Virus record (IMG/VR): IMGVR_UViG_3300032332_000934
Coordinates: 32,001-96,000 of that record
Source of the DNA: a virus
Taxonomy: Duplodnaviria; Caudoviricetes
DNA length: 64,000 nt
Reading direction: 5' to 3' (one strand)
Below, piece by piece: positions 16,399-20,368 of the stretch (position 1 is the stretch's first letter; every line of letters starts with the position of its first letter). The notes under the pieces were generated by a model. The model saw nothing but the letters and a program-made list of their open reading frames with translations, ran no database searches and had not been told where the DNA came from. Made by a program: the position numbers and the translations under genes.

Positions 16399-16587
16399 CT
16401 ATTTAGGATTATCTGTTTTATAAAATCCATTACCTTTAAACTGTACCCCAACTGTAGTAAAAAACCTTGTCATATTAGATTCACATTCAACACATGTATA
16501 ACCTGGATCACTATCTGTAATTGATCTGTTAATTGACATTAGTGGATGTGCTTCATCATATGAGCACTTGTATTCATATACTGGCAT
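16399..16587 (-). CDS. FmdB family zinc-ribbon protein
   Basis: MPVYEYKC...CVEC...FKGNGFYKTD. Confidence 0.88.
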   Translation of the reverse strand: MPVYEYKCSYDEAHPLMSINRSITDSDPGYTCVECESNMTRFFTTVGVQFKGNGFYKTDNPK

Positions 16588-17179
16588 CTAAATCCAAAAT
16601 AAAATCAAATATTAGTGAAGCTCTAGGCTCATAAACTATTACCTCATGATTCATTCCAGCGGGAATAAAAACTAAATCTCCAGGTTCAATATTTAATGTA
16701 TAACGTTTATTATCCTTATCGTAAACATTCCATTCTATTTTTCCAATACAATGCCAGTTTATTACATCTGTTTGATCAGAATGAATTTCATACTTTTTGT
16801 CATGTTTAATAAAATTAGTTATTGCAGTTACATGAATAGATGAATTACCTTCCATCAATGAGTTGTTTAAAATTTCAGCTACATCATTACATCCATCGAA
16901 GTAACCACTTTTAAAAATATCTTTACCATCTTTAAATACATAAGAGTAATGAGAAAAGGTATCCATAAGGTTATGTTGTGATAAAATTTCTGTTTTAACA
17001 TTTTCATTCATTAAAAACTGACTAGACTTTTTTTCTTTATTATCATAATTATTATTATATTTATAATTTAGATTATTTATAAAATTATCCCACGATGGAA
17101 CATCGCTATTAAAATTTTTTATATGCAAAAATGTATTATTTTTTTTAGCAGATTTTATTTGATCTAATAGAGAAGTCAT
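16574..17179 (-). CDS. JmjC/cupin-type 2OG-Fe(II) hydroxylase
   Basis: HSD.TDV....G...W.V, PGDLVFIPAG..HEV. Confidence 0.8.
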   Translation of the reverse strand: MTSLLDQIKSAKKNNTFLHIKNFNSDVPSWDNFINNLNYKYNNNYDNKEKKSSQFLMNENVKTEILSQHNLMDTFSHYSYVFKDGKDIFKSGYFDGCNDVAEILNNSLMEGNSSIHVTAITNFIKHDKKYEIHSDQTDVINWHCIGKIEWNVYDKDNKRYTLNIEPGDLVFIPAGMNHEVIVYEPRASLIFDFILDLDASI

Positions 17180-17586
17180 TATTTACCGCTTTTCTTCCTA
17201 GCTTTTGCTAATACATCAAAGTCTTTAATCTTTGTTTCTCCCATATATCCCCAAGCGTAACCATCTGCAATCATCTTTTCATTTAATGATACTGATGCAC
17301 CATCAAGGAACACCCAGCCTAAAATGCGACCATATTTTTCAGATGAGTCCATTTTTTCTGTTTTAATAACAACAGACTTTGCGGCCTCAATCTCATGCTT
17401 TAAATAAGCTTTTGCTTCTAAGCCTAGAGATTTTTCCATTTTATCTGTTGTTCTTGACTCTGGCGTATCAATGCCAGCTAGTCTTACTCGTGAGCTAAAT
17501 GATATATCAAACCCTAGATCAATATCAACATCAATTGTATCTCCATCAACTACCTTTGTTACTTTCTTTACATAATATTCAAACAT
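17179..17586 (-). CDS. thermonuclease (SNase-like)
   Basis: KVVDGDTI, RVRL.GIDTPE, KYGRILG, N..MI..GYA. Confidence 0.9.
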   Translation of the reverse strand: MFEYYVKKVTKVVDGDTIDVDIDLGFDISFSSRVRLAGIDTPESRTTDKMEKSLGLEAKAYLKHEIEAAKSVVIKTEKMDSSEKYGRILGWVFLDGASVSLNEKMIADGYAWGYMGETKIKDFDVLAKARKKSGK

Positions 17587-17789
17587 TATTTTCTCCCCCA
17601 TTTAACTTTATTCCAACCACGCTCATGGAAGTAATAAAGTATTGTTTTTGTTAGTACTTCAAACCCTGCAATTGATGCAGCTGTTATTGCCTTATGTGTT
17701 ATAAAGTATGACAACACAAAAGTATCTGCCGTTCCAATTATTCGCCAAGTGATTGCCTTTAGTGCTGATCTTTGTTTAGTTACATTCAT
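17586..17789 (-). CDS. DUF2061 membrane protein
   Basis: RSALKAITWRIIGT.DT...YYFHERGW..V.WG; AGGAG SD. Confidence 0.88.
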   Translation of the reverse strand: MNVTKQRSALKAITWRIIGTADTFVLSYFITHKAITAASIAGFEVLTKTILYYFHERGWNKVKWGRK

Positions 17790-17831
17790 TGCCCTGCTCC
17801 TAAAGCCAGCCATGACAAAACTTCTTTTAGT

Positions 17832-18593
17832 TTAGATACCCATCTCTTTACGTTTTTGCGTAGCGCTAATAGCATGAATGTCTGCCCCCAAATCTACTTG
17901 TTCAATCTTATATCCTACATCACGACCATACACAATGTTAGTAATGTTAGGTAGTCTTAGTACTAATGCGCCATCCATAAATTCATCCTTGGCAATATAT
18001 TCTTTTACCTGGTCAAACTTAAGTGGATCTTTCTCACTTGTATTATATGTATTGCGGACTCCAAGTAGTACCTGATCTGTTCTTTTCCCCGCCTCTTTGT
18101 AAAGGGCGTGGTGGCCTTCGTGCCAAGGCTGGTACCTACCAAGCATAAGTGTTGTAGGTGCAGACCAATCATGTAGATTAAACTTATCAATTATATGAGA
18201 TGCCTTTGCTTCTGCATCTAGGTTATGGCTAATAAATGATACATCAAACTCTGTTGGTCTTTCAAACATTTTATTTGTGTCTTCAAAACGGCCTTCTGCA
18301 AGAGTATCCATAAACACAAGTACGTCTGGCTTACCAAAAGCTGATCGTGTTAGTTCCGTTGGGCATACGAAGTCAACAACTACTGGAGCAACACCTTGTT
18401 TAGATATTAACCTTGCCATCTCTCCCATGCGTCGAGCCTGCTCAAGCCTGTCGTCTAGACTAAACCCTAAATCAGAATTTACTGTTGCACGAACTTCGTC
18501 AGCATTAAGGTGAATAGCATTAATGCGCTCTTTCAAGGCTTTTGCAAGTTCTGTCTTCCCAGAACCTGGTAATCCAATAATTTGTATAATCAT
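17832..18593 (-). CDS. cysC: adenylylsulfate kinase-like P-loop domain fused to HxGH nucleotidyltransferase domain
   Basis: GLPGSGKT, NADEVR, DLGFS..DR, FE.P (APS kinase); GRYQPWHEGH and ISAT (cytidylyltransferase-like). Confidence 0.8.
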   Translation of the reverse strand: MIIQIIGLPGSGKTELAKALKERINAIHLNADEVRATVNSDLGFSLDDRLEQARRMGEMARLISKQGVAPVVVDFVCPTELTRSAFGKPDVLVFMDTLAEGRFEDTNKMFERPTEFDVSFISHNLDAEAKASHIIDKFNLHDWSAPTTLMLGRYQPWHEGHHALYKEAGKRTDQVLLGVRNTYNTSEKDPLKFDQVKEYIAKDEFMDGALVLRLPNITNIVYGRDVGYKIEQVDLGADIHAISATQKRKEMGI

Positions 18594-18612
18594 TTTAATC
18601 TTTCTGTTAGAA

Positions 18613-18638
18613 GGGCAGTTTTTGGACATACCCAGGTC
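18613..18638 (-). ncRNA. candidate small H-type pseudoknot RNA, copy 1
   Basis: GAC-CTGGGTAT-GTC-C-AAAAACTGCCC; P1 GAC/GTC, P2 GGGTA/TGCCC; covaries with the copy at 19288. Confidence 0.5.
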
Positions 18639-18644
18639 TCAATT

Positions 18645-19061
18645 TTATTTAATTTTTAGAATTTTTGGTTGTTTTTCTTTTGGTAGATTTCTAACTACAA
18701 GGATATTTAGCATACCGTCCTTTAGCTCTACACTAGAAACTTCCATGTATTCACTTAGCTCGAAGATTCTTGTAAACTTACGTGCAGCGATTCCCTTATG
18801 TACAACCTTTGCATCTGTTATTTCAGTAATTTCACCTGTAATCCAAAGACTTCCGTCTTCAATAGATACAGTTAAATCTTCTCTCGTGAATCCAGCAACT
18901 GCCAGTGTTAGCTGGTAATTGTCTTCGTCTAGCTTTAGCAAATCATACGGCGGAAACGCTGTGTTGTTTACCTTACTAAGACTATTAAAACGCTCCAACT
19001 CTCTGTTGAAGCCAATAAAAAATGGATCCTTAAAAAGATCCATCGCAAACTGTGTTACCAT
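18645..19061 (-). CDS. hsp20: small heat shock protein Hsp20 (IbpA-like)
   Basis: FPPYD, LAVAGF, HKGIA.R.F.R.F.L, L.DGML.I. Confidence 0.95.
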   Translation of the reverse strand: MVTQFAMDLFKDPFFIGFNRELERFNSLSKVNNTAFPPYDLLKLDEDNYQLTLAVAGFTREDLTVSIEDGSLWITGEITEITDAKVVHKGIAARKFTRIFELSEYMEVSSVELKDGMLNILVVRNLPKEKQPKILKIK

Positions 19062-19063
19062 AA

Positions 19064-19084
19064 TATTCCCCTTTCAAGCGAATA
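19064..19084 (-). promoter_or_regulatory. ROSE-like RNA thermometer hairpin over the hsp20 SD
   Basis: UAUUC(G)CUU-GAAA-GGGGAAUA: UCGCU with bulged G paired to the SD. Confidence 0.5.
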
Positions 19085-19092
19085 GTTTAATT

Positions 19093-19127
19093 TAGGCCCC
19101 TTTTGGCGACCTATTTTAATTATATCA
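19093..19127 (-). promoter_or_regulatory. extended -10 promoter plus 5' hairpin for hsp20
   Basis: TGATATAAT at 19127-19119; TAGGTCGCC-AAAA-GGGGCCTA stem. Confidence 0.6.
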
Positions 19128-19132
19128 TATTG

Positions 19133-19205
19133 CTGGGGATATAGGGCTCGAACCTATGACCTAGAAATTAACAGTTTCCCGCTCTGCCAGCTGAGCTAAT
19201 CCCCA
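19133..19205 (-). tRNA. tRNA-Asn(GTT)
   Basis: Acceptor TGGGGAT/ATCCCCA, D arm, loop CTGTTAA, T loop TTCGAGC; no encoded CCA. Confidence 0.92.
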
Positions 19206-19209
19206 ATCG

Positions 19210-19282
19210 TGTCCCCAGATGGTATCGAACCATCGACCCGCAGATTAAAAGTCTGCTGCTCTACCAGCTGAGCTATAGGAAC
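19210..19282 (-). tRNA. tRNA-Lys(TTT)
   Basis: Acceptor GTTCCTA/TGGGGAC, anticodon arm GCAGA-CTTTTAA-TCTGC, GGTTCGA. Confidence 0.93.
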
Positions 19283-19287
19283 AATGC

Positions 19288-19313
19288 TGGCAGTTTTAAT
19301 TCATACCAAGGAA
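19288..19313 (-). ncRNA. candidate small H-type pseudoknot RNA, copy 2
   Basis: TTC-CTTGGTAT-GAA-TT-AAAACTGCCA; P1 TTC/GAA, P2 TGGTA/TGCCA. Confidence 0.5.
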
Positions 19314-19319
19314 ATCAAT

Positions 19320-19832
19320 CTAGGCTGACAAGATTTTAGACAACGCATTAATTGTTGCTGCAATTCTTCCGATATCACGCAACTGTTCAACACTATATCC
19401 TTCTTCTTTTAATGTATCATAATGTGCTTTAACACAAAAATGACATTTGCCAACTATTGATGATGCCAATGAGTATGCTTCAAACTTACCTTTTGTTGTA
19501 CCTCCGTGAGATGATATAGCATTCATTCTAAGTTGTGCTGGTAATCCTTTAAGATTAGCATCGTCAGCCATTTCAATAAAAGGATACCATGTATTATTTT
19601 GTGCCATTATGGCACCAGCTGTAAGGGCTGCATTTTTTTCAACTTCATCTGTTGCACTTGCAACTATAAATGCAAGCAACTTGGCGTTTCCAGTTGCAAA
19701 TGCTGATGAAATTGAAATGTATGTAGCATGCTCTGGATCAATAGTAGACCTATTAATAACGGCATCCAGGTTTAATTTTATATCTTTAGCATACTCTGGA
19801 AGAGATTCTTTAAGTTGGTCTACCCATGTCAT
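19320..19832 (-). CDS. ahpD: alkyl hydroperoxide reductase AhpD
   Basis: LPEYAKDIKLNL, MAQNN.WY, A.LRMN, CHFC..AH motif. Confidence 0.93.
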   Translation of the reverse strand: MTWVDQLKESLPEYAKDIKLNLDAVINRSTIDPEHATYISISSAFATGNAKLLAFIVASATDEVEKNAALTAGAIMAQNNTWYPFIEMADDANLKGLPAQLRMNAISSHGGTTKGKFEAYSLASSIVGKCHFCVKAHYDTLKEEGYSVEQLRDIGRIAATINALSKILSA

Positions 19833-20368
19833 TAAAGAGTTTCTCCACCTAATGACCTATTGCATGCACACAGCTCTCCTGTTTGCAATGCATCTAGTAT
19901 GCGAAGTGTTTCGTCTGGGTTTCTTCCTACATCTAGATTATTTACAGTTACATGCTGAATAATATTTTCTGGATCAACAATAAATGTAGCACGATATGTA
20001 ACTCCAGAAGAGTGGTGAACCCCAAGGTCGCTAGCTAGTTGATGCGCTGTATCTGCAAATGACCATGAGTTTGTCTTCTTAAGATCATCATGTGCATTTC
20101 TCCATGCAATTTTACAAAATTCATTATCAACAGAACCAGTCATAAGAACTGTATCTCTATCATTAAAATCATTCACTAAAGCATCGTATGCAACAATTTC
20201 AGTTGGGCATACAAATGTAAAGTCCTTGGGATAAAAAGCAATAACTTTCCATTTTCCTGGAAAAGATTCTTGCGTAATTATTTCAAAAGAGGATTCATCG
20301 TACGACAAAGCCCCTGGCTTAACTCCAGTAACAGCAAAGTTACCAATCTTATCTCCTACGGTTTTCAT
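19832..20368 (-). CDS. ahpC: peroxiredoxin AhpC
   Basis: FYPKDFTFVCPTE, RATFIVDP, GRN.DE.LR, ELCACN. Confidence 0.95.
   Translation of the reverse strand: MKTVGDKIGNFAVTGVKPGALSYDESSFEIITQESFPGKWKVIAFYPKDFTFVCPTEIVAYDALVNDFNDRDTVLMTGSVDNEFCKIAWRNAHDDLKKTNSWSFADTAHQLASDLGVHHSSGVTYRATFIVDPENIIQHVTVNNLDVGRNPDETLRILDALQTGELCACNRSLGGETL

Follow-up and report, generated by a model that had tools for sequence, protein, structure and literature searches.

A previously uncatalogued 26-nt pseudoknot RNA family found past stop codons and next to tRNA genes in unrelated phages

Introduction

Why would a phage place two nearly alike 26-nt segments directly behind the stop codons of an hsp20 gene and an ahpD-like gene? 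The question is raised by the window analyzed here, a 64,000-nt stretch of viral DNA, in which an earlier note, made from the sequence alone, described two covarying copies of a small pseudoknot. Structures a few nt past stop codons have precedents: REP hairpins, the RNase III-processed hairpins of T7 and the intercistronic hairpins of phiX174 are 3' stabilisers of this kind, which stop 3' exonucleases and in that way give the cistrons of one transcript different stabilities. Here, we ask whether the two segments are a genuine structured RNA, how widely that RNA occurs, where it is placed and which function best fits its structure and placement.

Results

Two copies in the window and four in the genome

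Both 26-nt copies exist on the minus strand as originally written, each beginning 6 nt past a stop codon when the sequence is read directly. The surrounding features are as follows.

17832..18593, minus strand: APS-kinase/cytidylyltransferase-like gene, downstream of copy 1 (Pfam PF01583, E 2e-14)
18613..18638, minus strand: pseudoknot copy 1 (sequence read; covariance model R1, 34.2 bits, E 3e-5)
18645..19061, minus strand: hsp20 gene (Pfam PF00011, E 9e-17)
19132-19205, minus strand: tRNA-Asn(GUU) (ARAGORN and Rfam tRNA model)
19209-19282, minus strand: tRNA-Lys(UUU) (ARAGORN and Rfam tRNA model)
19288..19313, minus strand: pseudoknot copy 2 (sequence read; covariance model R1, 27.6 bits)
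19320..19832, minus strand: CMD/AhpD-family gene (Pfam PF02627, E 1e-7)
19832-20368: AhpC/TSA gene, before the CMD/AhpD-family gene (Pfam PF00578, E 2e-22)

Copy 1, read from 18638 to 18613, is GAC CT GGGTA T GTC CAAAAAC TGCCC and follows the hsp20 stop codon TAA (18647-18645); all 8 of its pairs are formed, one of them as a U-G wobble. Copy 2, read from 19313 to 19288, is TTC CT TGGTA T GAA TTAAAAC TGCCA and follows the stop codon TAG (19322-19320) of the CMD/AhpD-family ORF, again with 8 of 8 pairs formed. The parts of the two copies are laid out below.

Copy 1, stem P1 and loop L1: P1 5' strand 18638-18636; L1 CU 18635-18634; P1 3' strand 18627-18625
Copy 1, stem P2 and the rest: P2 5' strand 18633-18629; bridge U 18628; L3 CAAAAAC 18624-18618; P2 3' strand 18617-18613
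Copy 2, stem P1 and loop L1: P1 19313-19311 with 19302-19300; L1 CU 19310-19309
Copy 2, stem P2 and the rest: P2 19308-19304 with 19292-19288; bridge U 19303; L3 UUAAAAC 19299-19293

The compensatory changes reported between the copies, in P1 (GAC/GTC versus TTC/GAA) and in P2 (GGGTA/TGCCC versus TGGTA/TGCCA), are confirmed, and coordinates together with ARAGORN place the end of copy 2 at 5 nt before the start of tRNA-Lys (19282..19209), as had been claimed. On the other side, the APS-kinase/cytidylyltransferase-like gene has its ATG 19 nt 3' of copy 1, and its protein carries a Walker A motif at residues 2-15. The longer listed ORF (17832-18629), which starts at the ATG inside copy 1, is probably an artefact, an example of the false N-terminal extensions that this ATG lends to downstream genes in annotation. 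In a relative (L031), the pseudoknot is kept before the same APS-kinase-like gene while the sequences of P1 and P2 differ.

The core common to both copies, GGTATG-N(2-8)-AAAACTGCC, occurs twice in the window and in none of 100 shuffles. The count of two copies is correct for the window but not for the genome: in its 114,966 bp, a structure-descriptor scan finds exactly four copies, and the covariance model finds the same four, which score 27.6-40 bits, with the next best match at 10.8 bits. Dinucleotide shuffles lead one to expect 0.26 copies. The other two lie outside the window.

L003:5429-5454, plus strand: third copy, AAC CT GAGTA A GTT GCTAAAC TGCTC
L003:6959-6984, plus strand: fourth copy, TTC CT GAGCA T GAA TAAAAAC TGCTC

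The fourth copy lies 8 nt 3' of a DUF932 gene and 12 nt 5' of a tRNA-Asp gene.

The family is absent from the catalogues and papers searched

The scan against Rfam that the earlier note had proposed left the element without a family. At the gathering score, only four tRNAs of the window match Rfam 15; between 18400 and 19500, at E≤10, nothing convincing falls on either copy, and the pan match that overlaps has a chance-level E of 4.3. The motif is likewise unmatched at E≤10 in nine loci with canonical copies, so that none of 13 copies in total has an Rfam 15 match. BLAST of the locus against cultured phages returned tRNA matches only. Literature searches with sequence strings led to unrelated primer sequences, searches on xrRNA and bacteriophage returned nothing about phage elements, and the passages on tRNA-Asp and pseudoknots in a large screen of viral structured RNAs (PMC10690425) do not describe the motif. 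By these searches of Rfam and the literature, the 26-nt pseudoknot family is previously uncatalogued.

Both stems covary across the family

The search of phage genomes, also proposed at the outset, found further covarying instances widely in IMG/VR. The family consensus is NNC-CU-GAGCA-U-GNN-NNAAAAC-UGCUC, a 26-nt H-type pseudoknot in which stem 1 has 3 bp and stem 2 has 5 bp. Its single-stranded parts are the loop CU, one bridge nucleotide and a final loop with AAAC at its end; their lengths, 2, 1 and 7 nt, are constant in all descriptor matches. C4, U5, A18-A20 and C21 are more than 98% invariant in phages of at least five host phyla, U22 is invariant or nearly so, and the closing pair of stem 1, C3-G12, is 98% conserved; N15-N16 vary. 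The statement that the loop residues are fixed therefore stands family-wide for C4, U5, A18-A20 and C21 but not for bridge residue 11, where U is merely preferred (88%) and A, C and G also occur. A conserved tetraloop hairpin lies 3' of the pseudoknot in some lineages only, including one copy of the present genome.

Several lines of evidence bear on the pairing itself. First, when matches are retrieved by a pattern that does not require pairing, all 8 base pairs are formed in 105 of the 129 IMG/VR matches listed, as opposed to 6 of the 119 listed from cellular genomes. Second, in 96 distinct sequences retrieved by a pattern imposing no pairing, 93% of cells pair, compared to 76% in shuffles (0 of 500 shuffles reach 93%) and to 27-44% when the partners are slid. 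Third, P1 pairs 1-14 and 2-13 each occur as four or five pair types, and the otherwise invariant G8-C24 pair is replaced by A-U in four loci. With both stems covarying over ~100 independent sequences, the original proposal of a structured cis RNA pseudoknot at gene 3' ends is strongly supported.

The covariation also has a strand. G-U pairs outnumber A-C pairs 24 to 4, and internal pair 9-23 is U-G in 17 cases and A-C in none. Because G-U is tolerated where A-C is not, the pseudoknot is an RNA of the sense strand. In agreement with this, a same-strand ORF of at least 80 aa ends within 150 nt upstream of 92 of the 136 copies, while an opposite-strand ORF is found there for 13 of the 136. The pseudoknot is part of the sense-strand transcript. 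Its nested folding energies, between -2.5 and -5.4 kcal/mol (z-scores between -0.65 and -2.6), are weak.

Hundreds of unrelated phages carry the pseudoknot

The family is carried by hundreds of unrelated phages, among them cultured phages of Mycobacterium, Lactobacillus, Synechococcus, Paracoccus and Vibrio, and by a 5,035-nt microvirus with 8 annotated features. Individual carriers are Mycobacterium phage Labelle, Paracoccus phage ParMal1, Vibrio phage D456, Lactobacillus phage AQ113 and Synechococcus phage S-CRM01, the last with several copies in its tRNA array. T4, T5, T7, lambda and Syn9 lack it; a weak T4 match (15 bits) lies in coding sequence without pairing and was rejected. In Lactobacillus phage AQ113, TTTTT stands immediately 3' of the knot. 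Between phages Labelle and Patience, homology ends at the stop codon just 5' of the knot.

Placement behind genes and beside tRNAs

Among 125 stop-to-pseudoknot distances, the commonest is 6 nt (23 cases), which is also the minimum: none of the 125 is 0-5 nt, and 7 nt (15 cases), 8 (7), 9 (7), 10 (13), 11 (3) and 12 (7) follow, and for ~40% of copies the nearest stop codon is more than 12 nt away. At 6 nt or more past the stop codon, the knot can stay folded while the ribosome terminates. Spacing to the following start codon varies widely, from 5 to 150 nt. Pairs of loci that share only the upstream gene number 252, as against 34 that share only the downstream gene; the pseudoknot travels with its upstream gene and not with the differing downstream gene.

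The link to stress genes drawn from the two window copies was too narrow. An hsp20 gene precedes the pseudoknot in 10 retrieved loci, with four different downstream gene families, and the hsp20 link is real but lineage-specific; the family as a whole follows many unrelated genes and some tRNAs. In retrieved loci, 14 of 18 tRNA-Asp genes have a pseudoknot in front, and the spacing from pseudoknot to downstream tRNA is 3-14 nt. In S-CRM01, one copy lies 4 nt after tRNA-Tyr and another 5 nt before tRNA-Asp, and the copies behind tRNAs have no ORF upstream. From these tRNA-flanking copies and from the microvirus carrier it follows that the pseudoknot is independent of translation and of a phage-encoded partner.

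In 66% of copies, the knot is directly followed by an A, and the 12 nt downstream are A/U-rich, with only 9.6% G. Sigma-70-like promoters lie downstream of 9 of 136 pseudoknot gene ends and of 44 of 701 other gene ends in the same loci; given this lack of enrichment, we rejected the pseudoknot as a specific marker of transcription-unit ends.

Discussion

A candidate roadblock that caps RNA ends

The genomic context favours a gene-end cap or roadblock and disfavours a riboswitch of the downstream gene. We tentatively suggest, at a little short of an even chance, that the element is a self-contained pseudoknot of the triplex type, which stands in the way of nucleases or other translocating enzymes and so caps RNA ends at gene boundaries. 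The fold would be a compact triplex-like knot comparable to luteovirus frameshift pseudoknots and coremin xrRNAs, and such a knot could act as a mechanical roadblock to exonucleases and possibly to other translocating machines. From the 3' side, it might halt PNPase or RNase II/R after nearby cuts by RNase P, RNase E or RNase Z; upstream of a tRNA, at 3-14 nt, RNase P cleavage would leave a short tail 3' of the knot. From the 5' side, it might halt RNase J or scanning RNase E. In this way, the adjoining message or tRNA precursor would acquire stable and insulated ends at the borders of genes.

Three observations count against a cap or roadblock: the weak nested folding energies, the general absence of hp2, the second hairpin directly behind the coremin spacer on which Xrn1 resistance depends, and the lack of promoter enrichment 3' of the knots. 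Moreover, no 5'-3' exonuclease is known from Vibrio, the hosts of some carriers, and a block of RNase J alone can therefore not be universal. A conserved partner or ligand would account just as well for loop residues that are almost wholly invariant from one host phylum to another. The REP, T7 and phiX174 stabilisers resemble the phage knots in being intercistronic, sense-strand structures shortly after a stop codon; they are, however, long, simple, lineage-specific hairpins and not a 26-nt pseudoknot with near-invariant loops across many phyla.

Likeness to coremin and luteovirid pseudoknots

The coremin motif (xrRNA-C) and its Watson-Crick variant, xrRNA-WCC, which Dilweg, Olsthoorn and colleagues described in RNA viruses of plants and fungi and in picorna-like viruses, are similar in several respects. 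Coremin requires a C-G loop-closing pair, and in its spacer G12 U13 U14 A15 A16 A17 C18 U19, residues A15-A17 and C18-U19 are essential while the 5' part is tolerant (PMC6546385). The phage knots share the short first stem of 3-4 bp (hp1) with this C-G closing pair, a loop that starts with a pyrimidine and a 3' segment tolerant at its start and essential in AAAC-U (coremin GUUAAACU, commonest phage form GUAAAACU); in parallel to the coremin spacer, phage N15-N16 vary while AAAC-U and C3-G12 are invariant. In the WCC form, the loop GAG pairs with a downstream CUC as in the phage knot, and natural coremin loops reach 8 nt. Coremin, too, is located in 3' UTRs, between genes and near stop codons, with tandem or multiple copies per genome.

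There are differences. Phage stem 2 is a clear Watson-Crick helix of 5 bp, the phage knot has an extra bridge nucleotide and an unpaired C21, and its 8-nt loop, CUGAGCAU, starts with a pyrimidine but fits neither YGAD nor YGNNAD. An hp2-like hairpin (-4 kcal/mol or better, starting within 3 nt) follows 15 of 120 copies compared to 11.8 in shuffles, and the mean downstream folding energy of the copies equals that of shuffles. The hosts, finally, are bacteria infected by DNA phages and have no Xrn1. With the required hp2 missing from most copies and the loop consensus not matched, we rejected membership in the coremin class.

The frameshift pseudoknot of PLRV likewise comprises 26 nt: its loop 1 has 2 nt, a single U serves as the bridge, and the A-rich loop A19-A25 forms minor-groove triples with stem 1 (PMC5416846). 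The phage knots share its length, the 2-nt loop 1 starting with C, the single U bridge and the 7-nt A-rich loop, which faces stem 1 and may form a similar triplex; both also lie ~6 nt downstream of the A-site codon. They differ from the luteovirid knots (BWYV; PLRV, PDB 2A43) in that the stems are 3 and 5 bp and not 4-5 and 3 bp, in that a stop codon and not a slippery heptamer stands 6 nt upstream, with no -1 ORF, and in that many phage copies are distant from any ORF end or stand behind tRNAs.

From these parallels, a broader proposal can be drawn, which we regard as possible but doubtful: the knot may be the bacterial-virus counterpart of the xrRNAs of eukaryotic viruses, a universal, partner-independent mechanical roadblock of 26 nt, placed behind genes and next to tRNAs by phages of all major host phyla and by microviruses. 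It would block exonucleases of the host or RNase E as it scans, and perhaps also ribosomes or Rho, setting the stability and insulation of cistrons, and would share its three-dimensional motif with coremin by convergence or ancient descent. If the fold is indeed a roadblock to nucleases or translocases, it would be the first RNA of the exoribonuclease-resistant type described in bacterial viruses and among the smallest autonomous RNA modules known, common to tailed phages of Actinobacteria, Firmicutes, Cyanobacteria and Proteobacteria and to a microvirus. Phages could then set the stability of single cistrons and protect tRNA precursors without encoding a dedicated protein, and the 26 nt would offer a portable part to stabilise or insulate RNAs in many bacteria. 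Its absence from T4, T5, T7, lambda and Syn9 may partly explain why it has not been studied.

Alternative functions

An action on ribosomes is a first, unlikely alternative. With the stop codon in the A site, the knot would sit at the mouth of the mRNA channel and act on terminating or post-termination ribosomes, by halting read-through, by blocking 70S scanning and re-initiation or by pausing termination; translation of the downstream gene would be uncoupled, or ribosomes would be kept off a downstream tRNA. The hard floor and mode of 6 nt fit this idea, and the spacers of -1 frameshift stimulators fall in this range. In loop architecture the knot is equal to the PLRV frameshift pseudoknot, and coremin-type knots stall scanning ribosomes as well as Xrn1 and stimulate frameshifting, with frameshift-stimulating coremin variants having been selected in an E. 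coli screen (PMC10321173, PMC10520033). However, the floor is also expected if the knot merely must stay folded beside a terminating ribosome, and neither the ~40% of copies far from a stop codon nor the S-CRM01 copies behind tRNAs are placed for such an action. We rejected programmed frameshifting and read-through in particular: a slippery heptamer precedes only 6 of 133 copies (1 of 133 control positions), no frame is extended, the -1 and +1 frames closing after a median of 8 and 6 codons, and at copy 1 a second in-frame stop follows one codon later.

The loop invariance over at least five host phyla is what a binding site would show, and the knot might bind a protein or small ligand conserved across bacteria, as a riboswitch-like sensor or decoy; we consider this improbable. 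A ligand such as a purine or 7-deazapurine could occupy a pocket at the helix junction of C4, U11 and C21, as in preQ1-I (RF00522), likewise a very small H-type pseudoknot with an A-rich 3' loop ending in AC followed by U. Some copies also adjoin queuosine-family tRNAs: tRNA-Asp-GUC among the tRNAs that follow, and Asn-GUU in the same operon. Against this stand the bridge, which can be any of the four nucleotides, the missing expression platform (P2 shares no residues with a Shine-Dalgarno sequence, and G is scarce in the 12 nt downstream) and the fact that the element tracks its upstream gene while the downstream genes are functionally unrelated. For preQ1-I itself, neither RF00522 nor any other riboswitch model matches the 13 copies at E≤10, stem 1 has 3 bp and not 5, a single variable bridge residue stands where preQ1-I has the loop-2 C that pairs with the ligand, and the knots are not in 5' UTRs of queuosine genes; we rejected a preQ1-I riboswitch on model score, stem length, bridge and context.

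The tight fit against tRNAs, 3-14 nt before them and 4 nt after one in S-CRM01, could instead mean that the knot is endonucleolytic punctuation, which RNase P, RNase Z, RNase E or RNase III would recognize, or which would position their cut, to separate cistrons and tRNAs. The A after the knot and the G-poor, A/U-rich stretch that follows resemble RNase E sites, and RNase P is known to accept pseudoknotted, tRNA-like acceptor mimics as substrates. We nevertheless hold such a signal to be quite improbable: the stacked helices comprise just 8 bp, less than a minimal acceptor/T-arm substrate has, only 5 of 136 copies have an ACCA tail behind them, and RNase P and RNase Z already cut at the adjacent tRNA, making a second signal redundant.

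Least probable, in our view, is a weak transcription terminator or pause, or a DNA-level element, such as a scar of recombination or of a mobile cassette, without function as RNA. TTTT occurs within 12 nt downstream in 21% of copies compared to 5% of control windows, and AQ113 has its T-tract directly after the knot, but most copies lack a U-tract, the first residue after the knot is A, and copies 3-14 nt before tRNAs require co-transcription; an intrinsic terminator, a G+C-rich hairpin with a U-tract, does not fit. The homology break between Labelle and Patience and the company of genes whose neighbours change would suit a scar, but pairing that covaries with G-U and not A-C is strand-specific and unexplained by duplex DNA; this wobble asymmetry, the bias towards the sense strand and the stop codons that the motif has in two frames argue against a DNA repeat or a protein-coding segment. 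An NtcA-type site (GTA-N8-AAC), seen by eye in both window copies, was dropped because the constraint across the family is base pairing and not a palindrome.

Results

The source genome, an IMG/VR virus record of 114,966 bp bounded by direct terminal repeats, carries a 26-nt RNA pseudoknot, here called the knot. An earlier note described the two window copies and placed each 6 nt after a stop codon; reading of the sequence bears it out in every detail, sequences and positions alike. Copy 1 lies 6 nt 3′ of the TAA of an Hsp20-family gene. Copy 2 lies 6 nt 3′ of the TAG of a CMD/AhpD-family gene and 5 nt 5′ of tRNA-Lys, which tRNA-Asn follows.

Knot copies in the source genome (L003, a locus of this genome outside the window) and genes near the window copies
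Window 18638..18613, minus: knot copy 1, GAC-CT-GGGTA-T-GTC-CAAAAAC-TGCCC
Window 19313..19288, minus: knot copy 2, TTC-CT-TGGTA-T-GAA-TTAAAAC-TGCCA
L003:5429-5454, plus: genome copy A, outside the window, AAC-CT-GAGTA-A-GTT-GCTAAAC-TGCTC
L003:6959-6984, plus: fourth genome copy, outside the window, TTC-CT-GAGCA-T-GAA-TAAAAAC-TGCTC
19832-20368, minus: AhpC/TSA peroxiredoxin gene
19320-19832, minus: CMD/AhpD-family gene (PF02627)
18645-19061, minus: Hsp20-family gene (PF00011, E 9e-17)
17832-18593, minus: APS-kinase plus cytidylyltransferase-like fusion gene
17586-17813, minus: DUF2061 gene
17179-17601, minus: staphylococcal-nuclease homologue gene
16574-17179, minus: cupin/JmjC-like protein gene

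The window genes, from AhpC/TSA through cupin/JmjC-like (16574-20368, minus), form a host-like auxiliary run in a phage.

The window has two instances of the core GGTATG-N(2-8)-AAAACTGCC, and 100 shuffles gave none. A whole-genome scan with a structure descriptor (3-bp P1, CT, 5-bp P2, a single-base bridge and a 7-nt loop with AAAC at its end) gave four matches, against 0.26 expected from dinucleotide shuffles, and a covariance model scored the same four at 27.6-40 bits, the next best match in the genome reaching 10.8 bits. Among them P1 is of three kinds and P2 of four, all paired, and their flanks have no similarity to one another. Genome copy A lies 35 nt after a 140-aa ORF; the fourth copy lies 8 nt 3′ of a DUF932 gene (E 6e-56) and 12 nt 5′ of tRNA-Asp(GUC).

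In IMG/VR, the pattern CCTNNGNATNNNNNAAAACTGC, in which at least one partner is unconstrained in five of the eight pairs, matched at least 120 DNA stretches. Among the matches listed, all 3+5 pairs are formed in 105 of 129. In the 96 distinct sequences from these, 93% of cells are base-paired, versus 76% in shuffles (0/500 reach 93%) and 27-44% with the partners offset by 1-3 columns. In the same listed matches, pair 1-14 occurs as AU, GC, UA, CG and UG, pair 2-13 as UA, AU and CG, pair 6-26 as GC, AU, GU and UA, and pair 7-25 as AU and GC; the otherwise invariant G8-C24 becomes A-U in extra descriptor copies from the same loci (GGACA/TGTCC, GAACA/TGTTC). Well-paired sequences hold 24 G-U pairs versus 4 A-C pairs, and internal pair 9-23 is U-G 17 times and never A-C. 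This asymmetry makes the structure sense-strand-specific and, therefore, RNA. The consensus is NNC-CU-GAGCA-U-GNN-NNAAAAC-UGCUC, with C3, C4, U5, G8, A10, G12, A18-A20, C21, U22, G23 and C24 at least 96% conserved; the bridge is U in 88% of copies, and A, C and G also occur. In sum, the RNA pseudoknot lies on the sense strand, its loops have constant lengths of 2, 1 and 7 nt, and their residues are nearly invariant.

The placement of the knot was analyzed in 145 descriptor instances from the fetched loci and the source genome. In 125, an ORF of 50 aa or more on the same strand ends no more than 150 nt upstream, with stop-to-knot distances of 6 nt (23 cases), 7 (15), 8 (7), 9 (7), 10 (13), 11 (3) and 12 (7), and a tail beyond. 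None of the 125 distances is 0-5 nt; the single distance of −1 probably reflects a spurious ORF, and merging near-identical contexts leaves this picture unchanged. The knot is held just beyond reach of the terminating ribosome. The distance to the next start is broad (5-150 nt). The abutting upstream ORF of at least 80 aa is on the same strand in 92 of 136 copies and on the opposite strand in only 13. Among instance pairs from different contigs, 252 have only the upstream gene in common and 34 only the downstream gene, counts that a few large upstream families dominate. The order Hsp20-then-knot was found in 10 instances with 4 different downstream families, and DUF932-then-knot in 22 with 9. 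One locus (L031) retains the hsp20-knot-kinase order of the window with different P1 (CAC/GTG) and P2 (GAGCA/TGCTC), while in two others (L093, L095) the knot stays with hsp20 and the downstream gene has changed. Altogether, the knot belongs to the 3′ edge of genes or sits beside tRNAs.

A tRNA starts 3-14 nt 3′ of the knot in 17 cases, 14 of them tRNA-Asp(GUC). Among the tRNAs of the fetched loci (L004-L123) and the genome, the knot precedes 14 of 18 tRNA-Asp(GUC) genes at this distance, mostly in the lineage of the source genome, in which a solitary tRNA-Asp follows DUF932 far from the remaining tRNAs. The only others preceded are Lys (2/4) and Asn (1/5); in these loci, no tRNA for Gly, Glu, Ile, Met, Arg, Leu or Thr has the knot in front of it. 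Synechococcus phage S-CRM01 is an independent case: one copy lies 5 nt 5′ of tRNA-Asp and another 4 nt 3′ of tRNA-Tyr, so that an upstream ORF is not required. Its tRNA array (L245, 129326-132435) holds several copies, the genome up to 9 at 16-31 bits with the model; one, with a 2-nt bridge, lies 3′ of a T-arm-like segment at which ARAGORN calls no tRNA.

The same pattern, searched in one genome per species for 185,579 prokaryote species, gave at least 120 rows of matches. Among those listed, only 6 of 119 are fully paired, and most of the few cellular cases come from metagenome-assembled genomes; thus, the knot is essentially viral. Cultured carriers were confirmed both by sequence and by the model.

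Carriers of the knot
Mycobacterium phage Labelle (Patiencevirus): 7 nt after gene 85
Synechococcus phages S-CRM01 and S-RIM4: carriers
Vibrio phage D456: carrier
Paracoccus phage ParMal1 (Autographiviridae): 7 nt 3′ of a stop codon
Lactobacillus phage AQ113: between a small gene and the scaffold gene
Microviridae genome, 5,035 nt: 16 nt 3′ of the vP5 gene

The genomes that carry the knot are too diverse, and too small, for a partner dedicated to it to be encoded in them. The model found no credible copy in T4, T5, T7, lambda or Syn9 (top score 15 bits); the T4 match is unpaired coding sequence.

Discussion

The knot is best classed as a compact H-type pseudoknot cis-element, one that makes up a new family in DNA phages. 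Against Rfam 15, the window copies have no match at the gathering score, and at E ≤ 10 there is no convincing one around either window copy and none on the knot in nine canonical-copy loci. Full-text literature searches with motif strings returned unrelated primers only, and no paper on xrRNA-like elements in phages was found. As a preQ1-I candidate, the knot failed all tests.

The knot may be likened, in look and supposed action, to two known systems. The frameshift pseudoknot of the luteovirid PLRV, also 26 nt long, has C7-A8 as loop 1 and a looped-out bridge, U12, while A19-A25 form minor-groove triples with stem 1 (PMC5416846). However, the phage knot is without the slippery site and −1 ORF of luteovirid knots, and no frameshift signal was found at its copies. 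In coremin, an Xrn1-resistant motif, a hairpin of 3-4 bp needs a C-G closing pair and has a pyrimidine-first loop; the spacer, G12-U13-U14-A15-A16-A17-C18-U19, tolerates changes at U13-U14 but not at A15-A17 or C18-U19 (PMC6546385). In the Watson-Crick variant of coremin, GAG of the loop pairs with CUC further downstream (PMC10321173). Knots of the coremin type bring Xrn1 and scanning ribosomes to a stall, and frameshift-stimulating variants were selected by an E. coli screen (PMC10321173, PMC10520033). The commonest phage loop 3 with the next base reads GUAAAACU, and stem 2 starts GAG.../...CUC; nevertheless, the phage knot does not fit the coremin loop consensus and generally lacks the second hairpin of coremin, hp2.

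By these parallels, the fold would be a compact triplex-type knot, and from them we take as the likeliest mechanism, at somewhat less than even confidence, a roadblock that would cap RNA ends at gene borders and insulate them. Cutting by RNase P, RNase E or RNase Z, together with trimming by exonucleases, would produce the 3′ end of the upstream message; in some contexts, it would be the downstream RNA that the knot caps, at its 5′ end. This reading has its weak points, namely low nested folding energies (−2.5 to −5.4 kcal/mol), the absence of the hp2 hairpin, and a degree of loop invariance that suggests a partner. An insulator directed at ribosomes, which coremin-type knots also stall, is unlikely. 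Rather less probable is that a conserved partner or a ligand binds the knot, for which loop invariance speaks. That the knot is an endonuclease punctuation signal seems doubtful. A weak terminator or DNA-level scar is very improbable; TTTT occurs within 12 nt after the knot in 21% of copies versus 5% of control windows, but the structure is sense-strand-specific.

In 66% of copies, A directly follows the knot. The 12 nt 3′ of the knot contain 9.6% G versus 21% further downstream, sigma-70-like promoters are not enriched downstream, and folding of the sequence 3′ of the copies found no general downstream hairpin. Genome copy A has a UUCG-tetraloop hairpin directly 3′ (UCCC-UUCG-GGGA, L003:5455-5466; genome 19455-19466, plus), conserved in relatives with compensatory changes (TCCCTTTAGGGA, ACACCTTCGGGTGT), a lineage-specific counterpart of hp2. 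In relatives (L086, L051, L109, L083, L005), a GNRA-tetraloop hairpin (CCC-GUAA-GGG or CCC-GCAA-GGG) follows some knots and is itself followed by a perfect or near-perfect TTGACA-N18-TATAAT promoter; other knots there have one or two exact DnaA boxes (TTATCCACA) 3′ of them. In L042, the knot (1589-1614) lies 1 nt 5′ of a DUF2800 RNA (RF02960, 135 bits, 1616-1771), which is a separate element. In Labelle (L244:1350-1800), homology to phages Patience and Madruga ends at the gene 85 stop codon, and the knot and tRNA-Gln beyond are missing from the aligned part of Patience, which places a mosaic boundary at the knot.

An AUG (A10-U11-G12) lies within ∼88% of family members, so that the family can give false N-terminal extensions in annotation; about half of the copies open a mini-ORF, AUG-NNN-UAA. 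The ATG at 18629-18627 in copy 1 is in frame with the APS-kinase-like gene, and the longest ORF (listed as 17832-18629, minus) therefore starts within the knot; translation probably starts at ATG 18593, and the Walker A motif then falls at residues 2-15.
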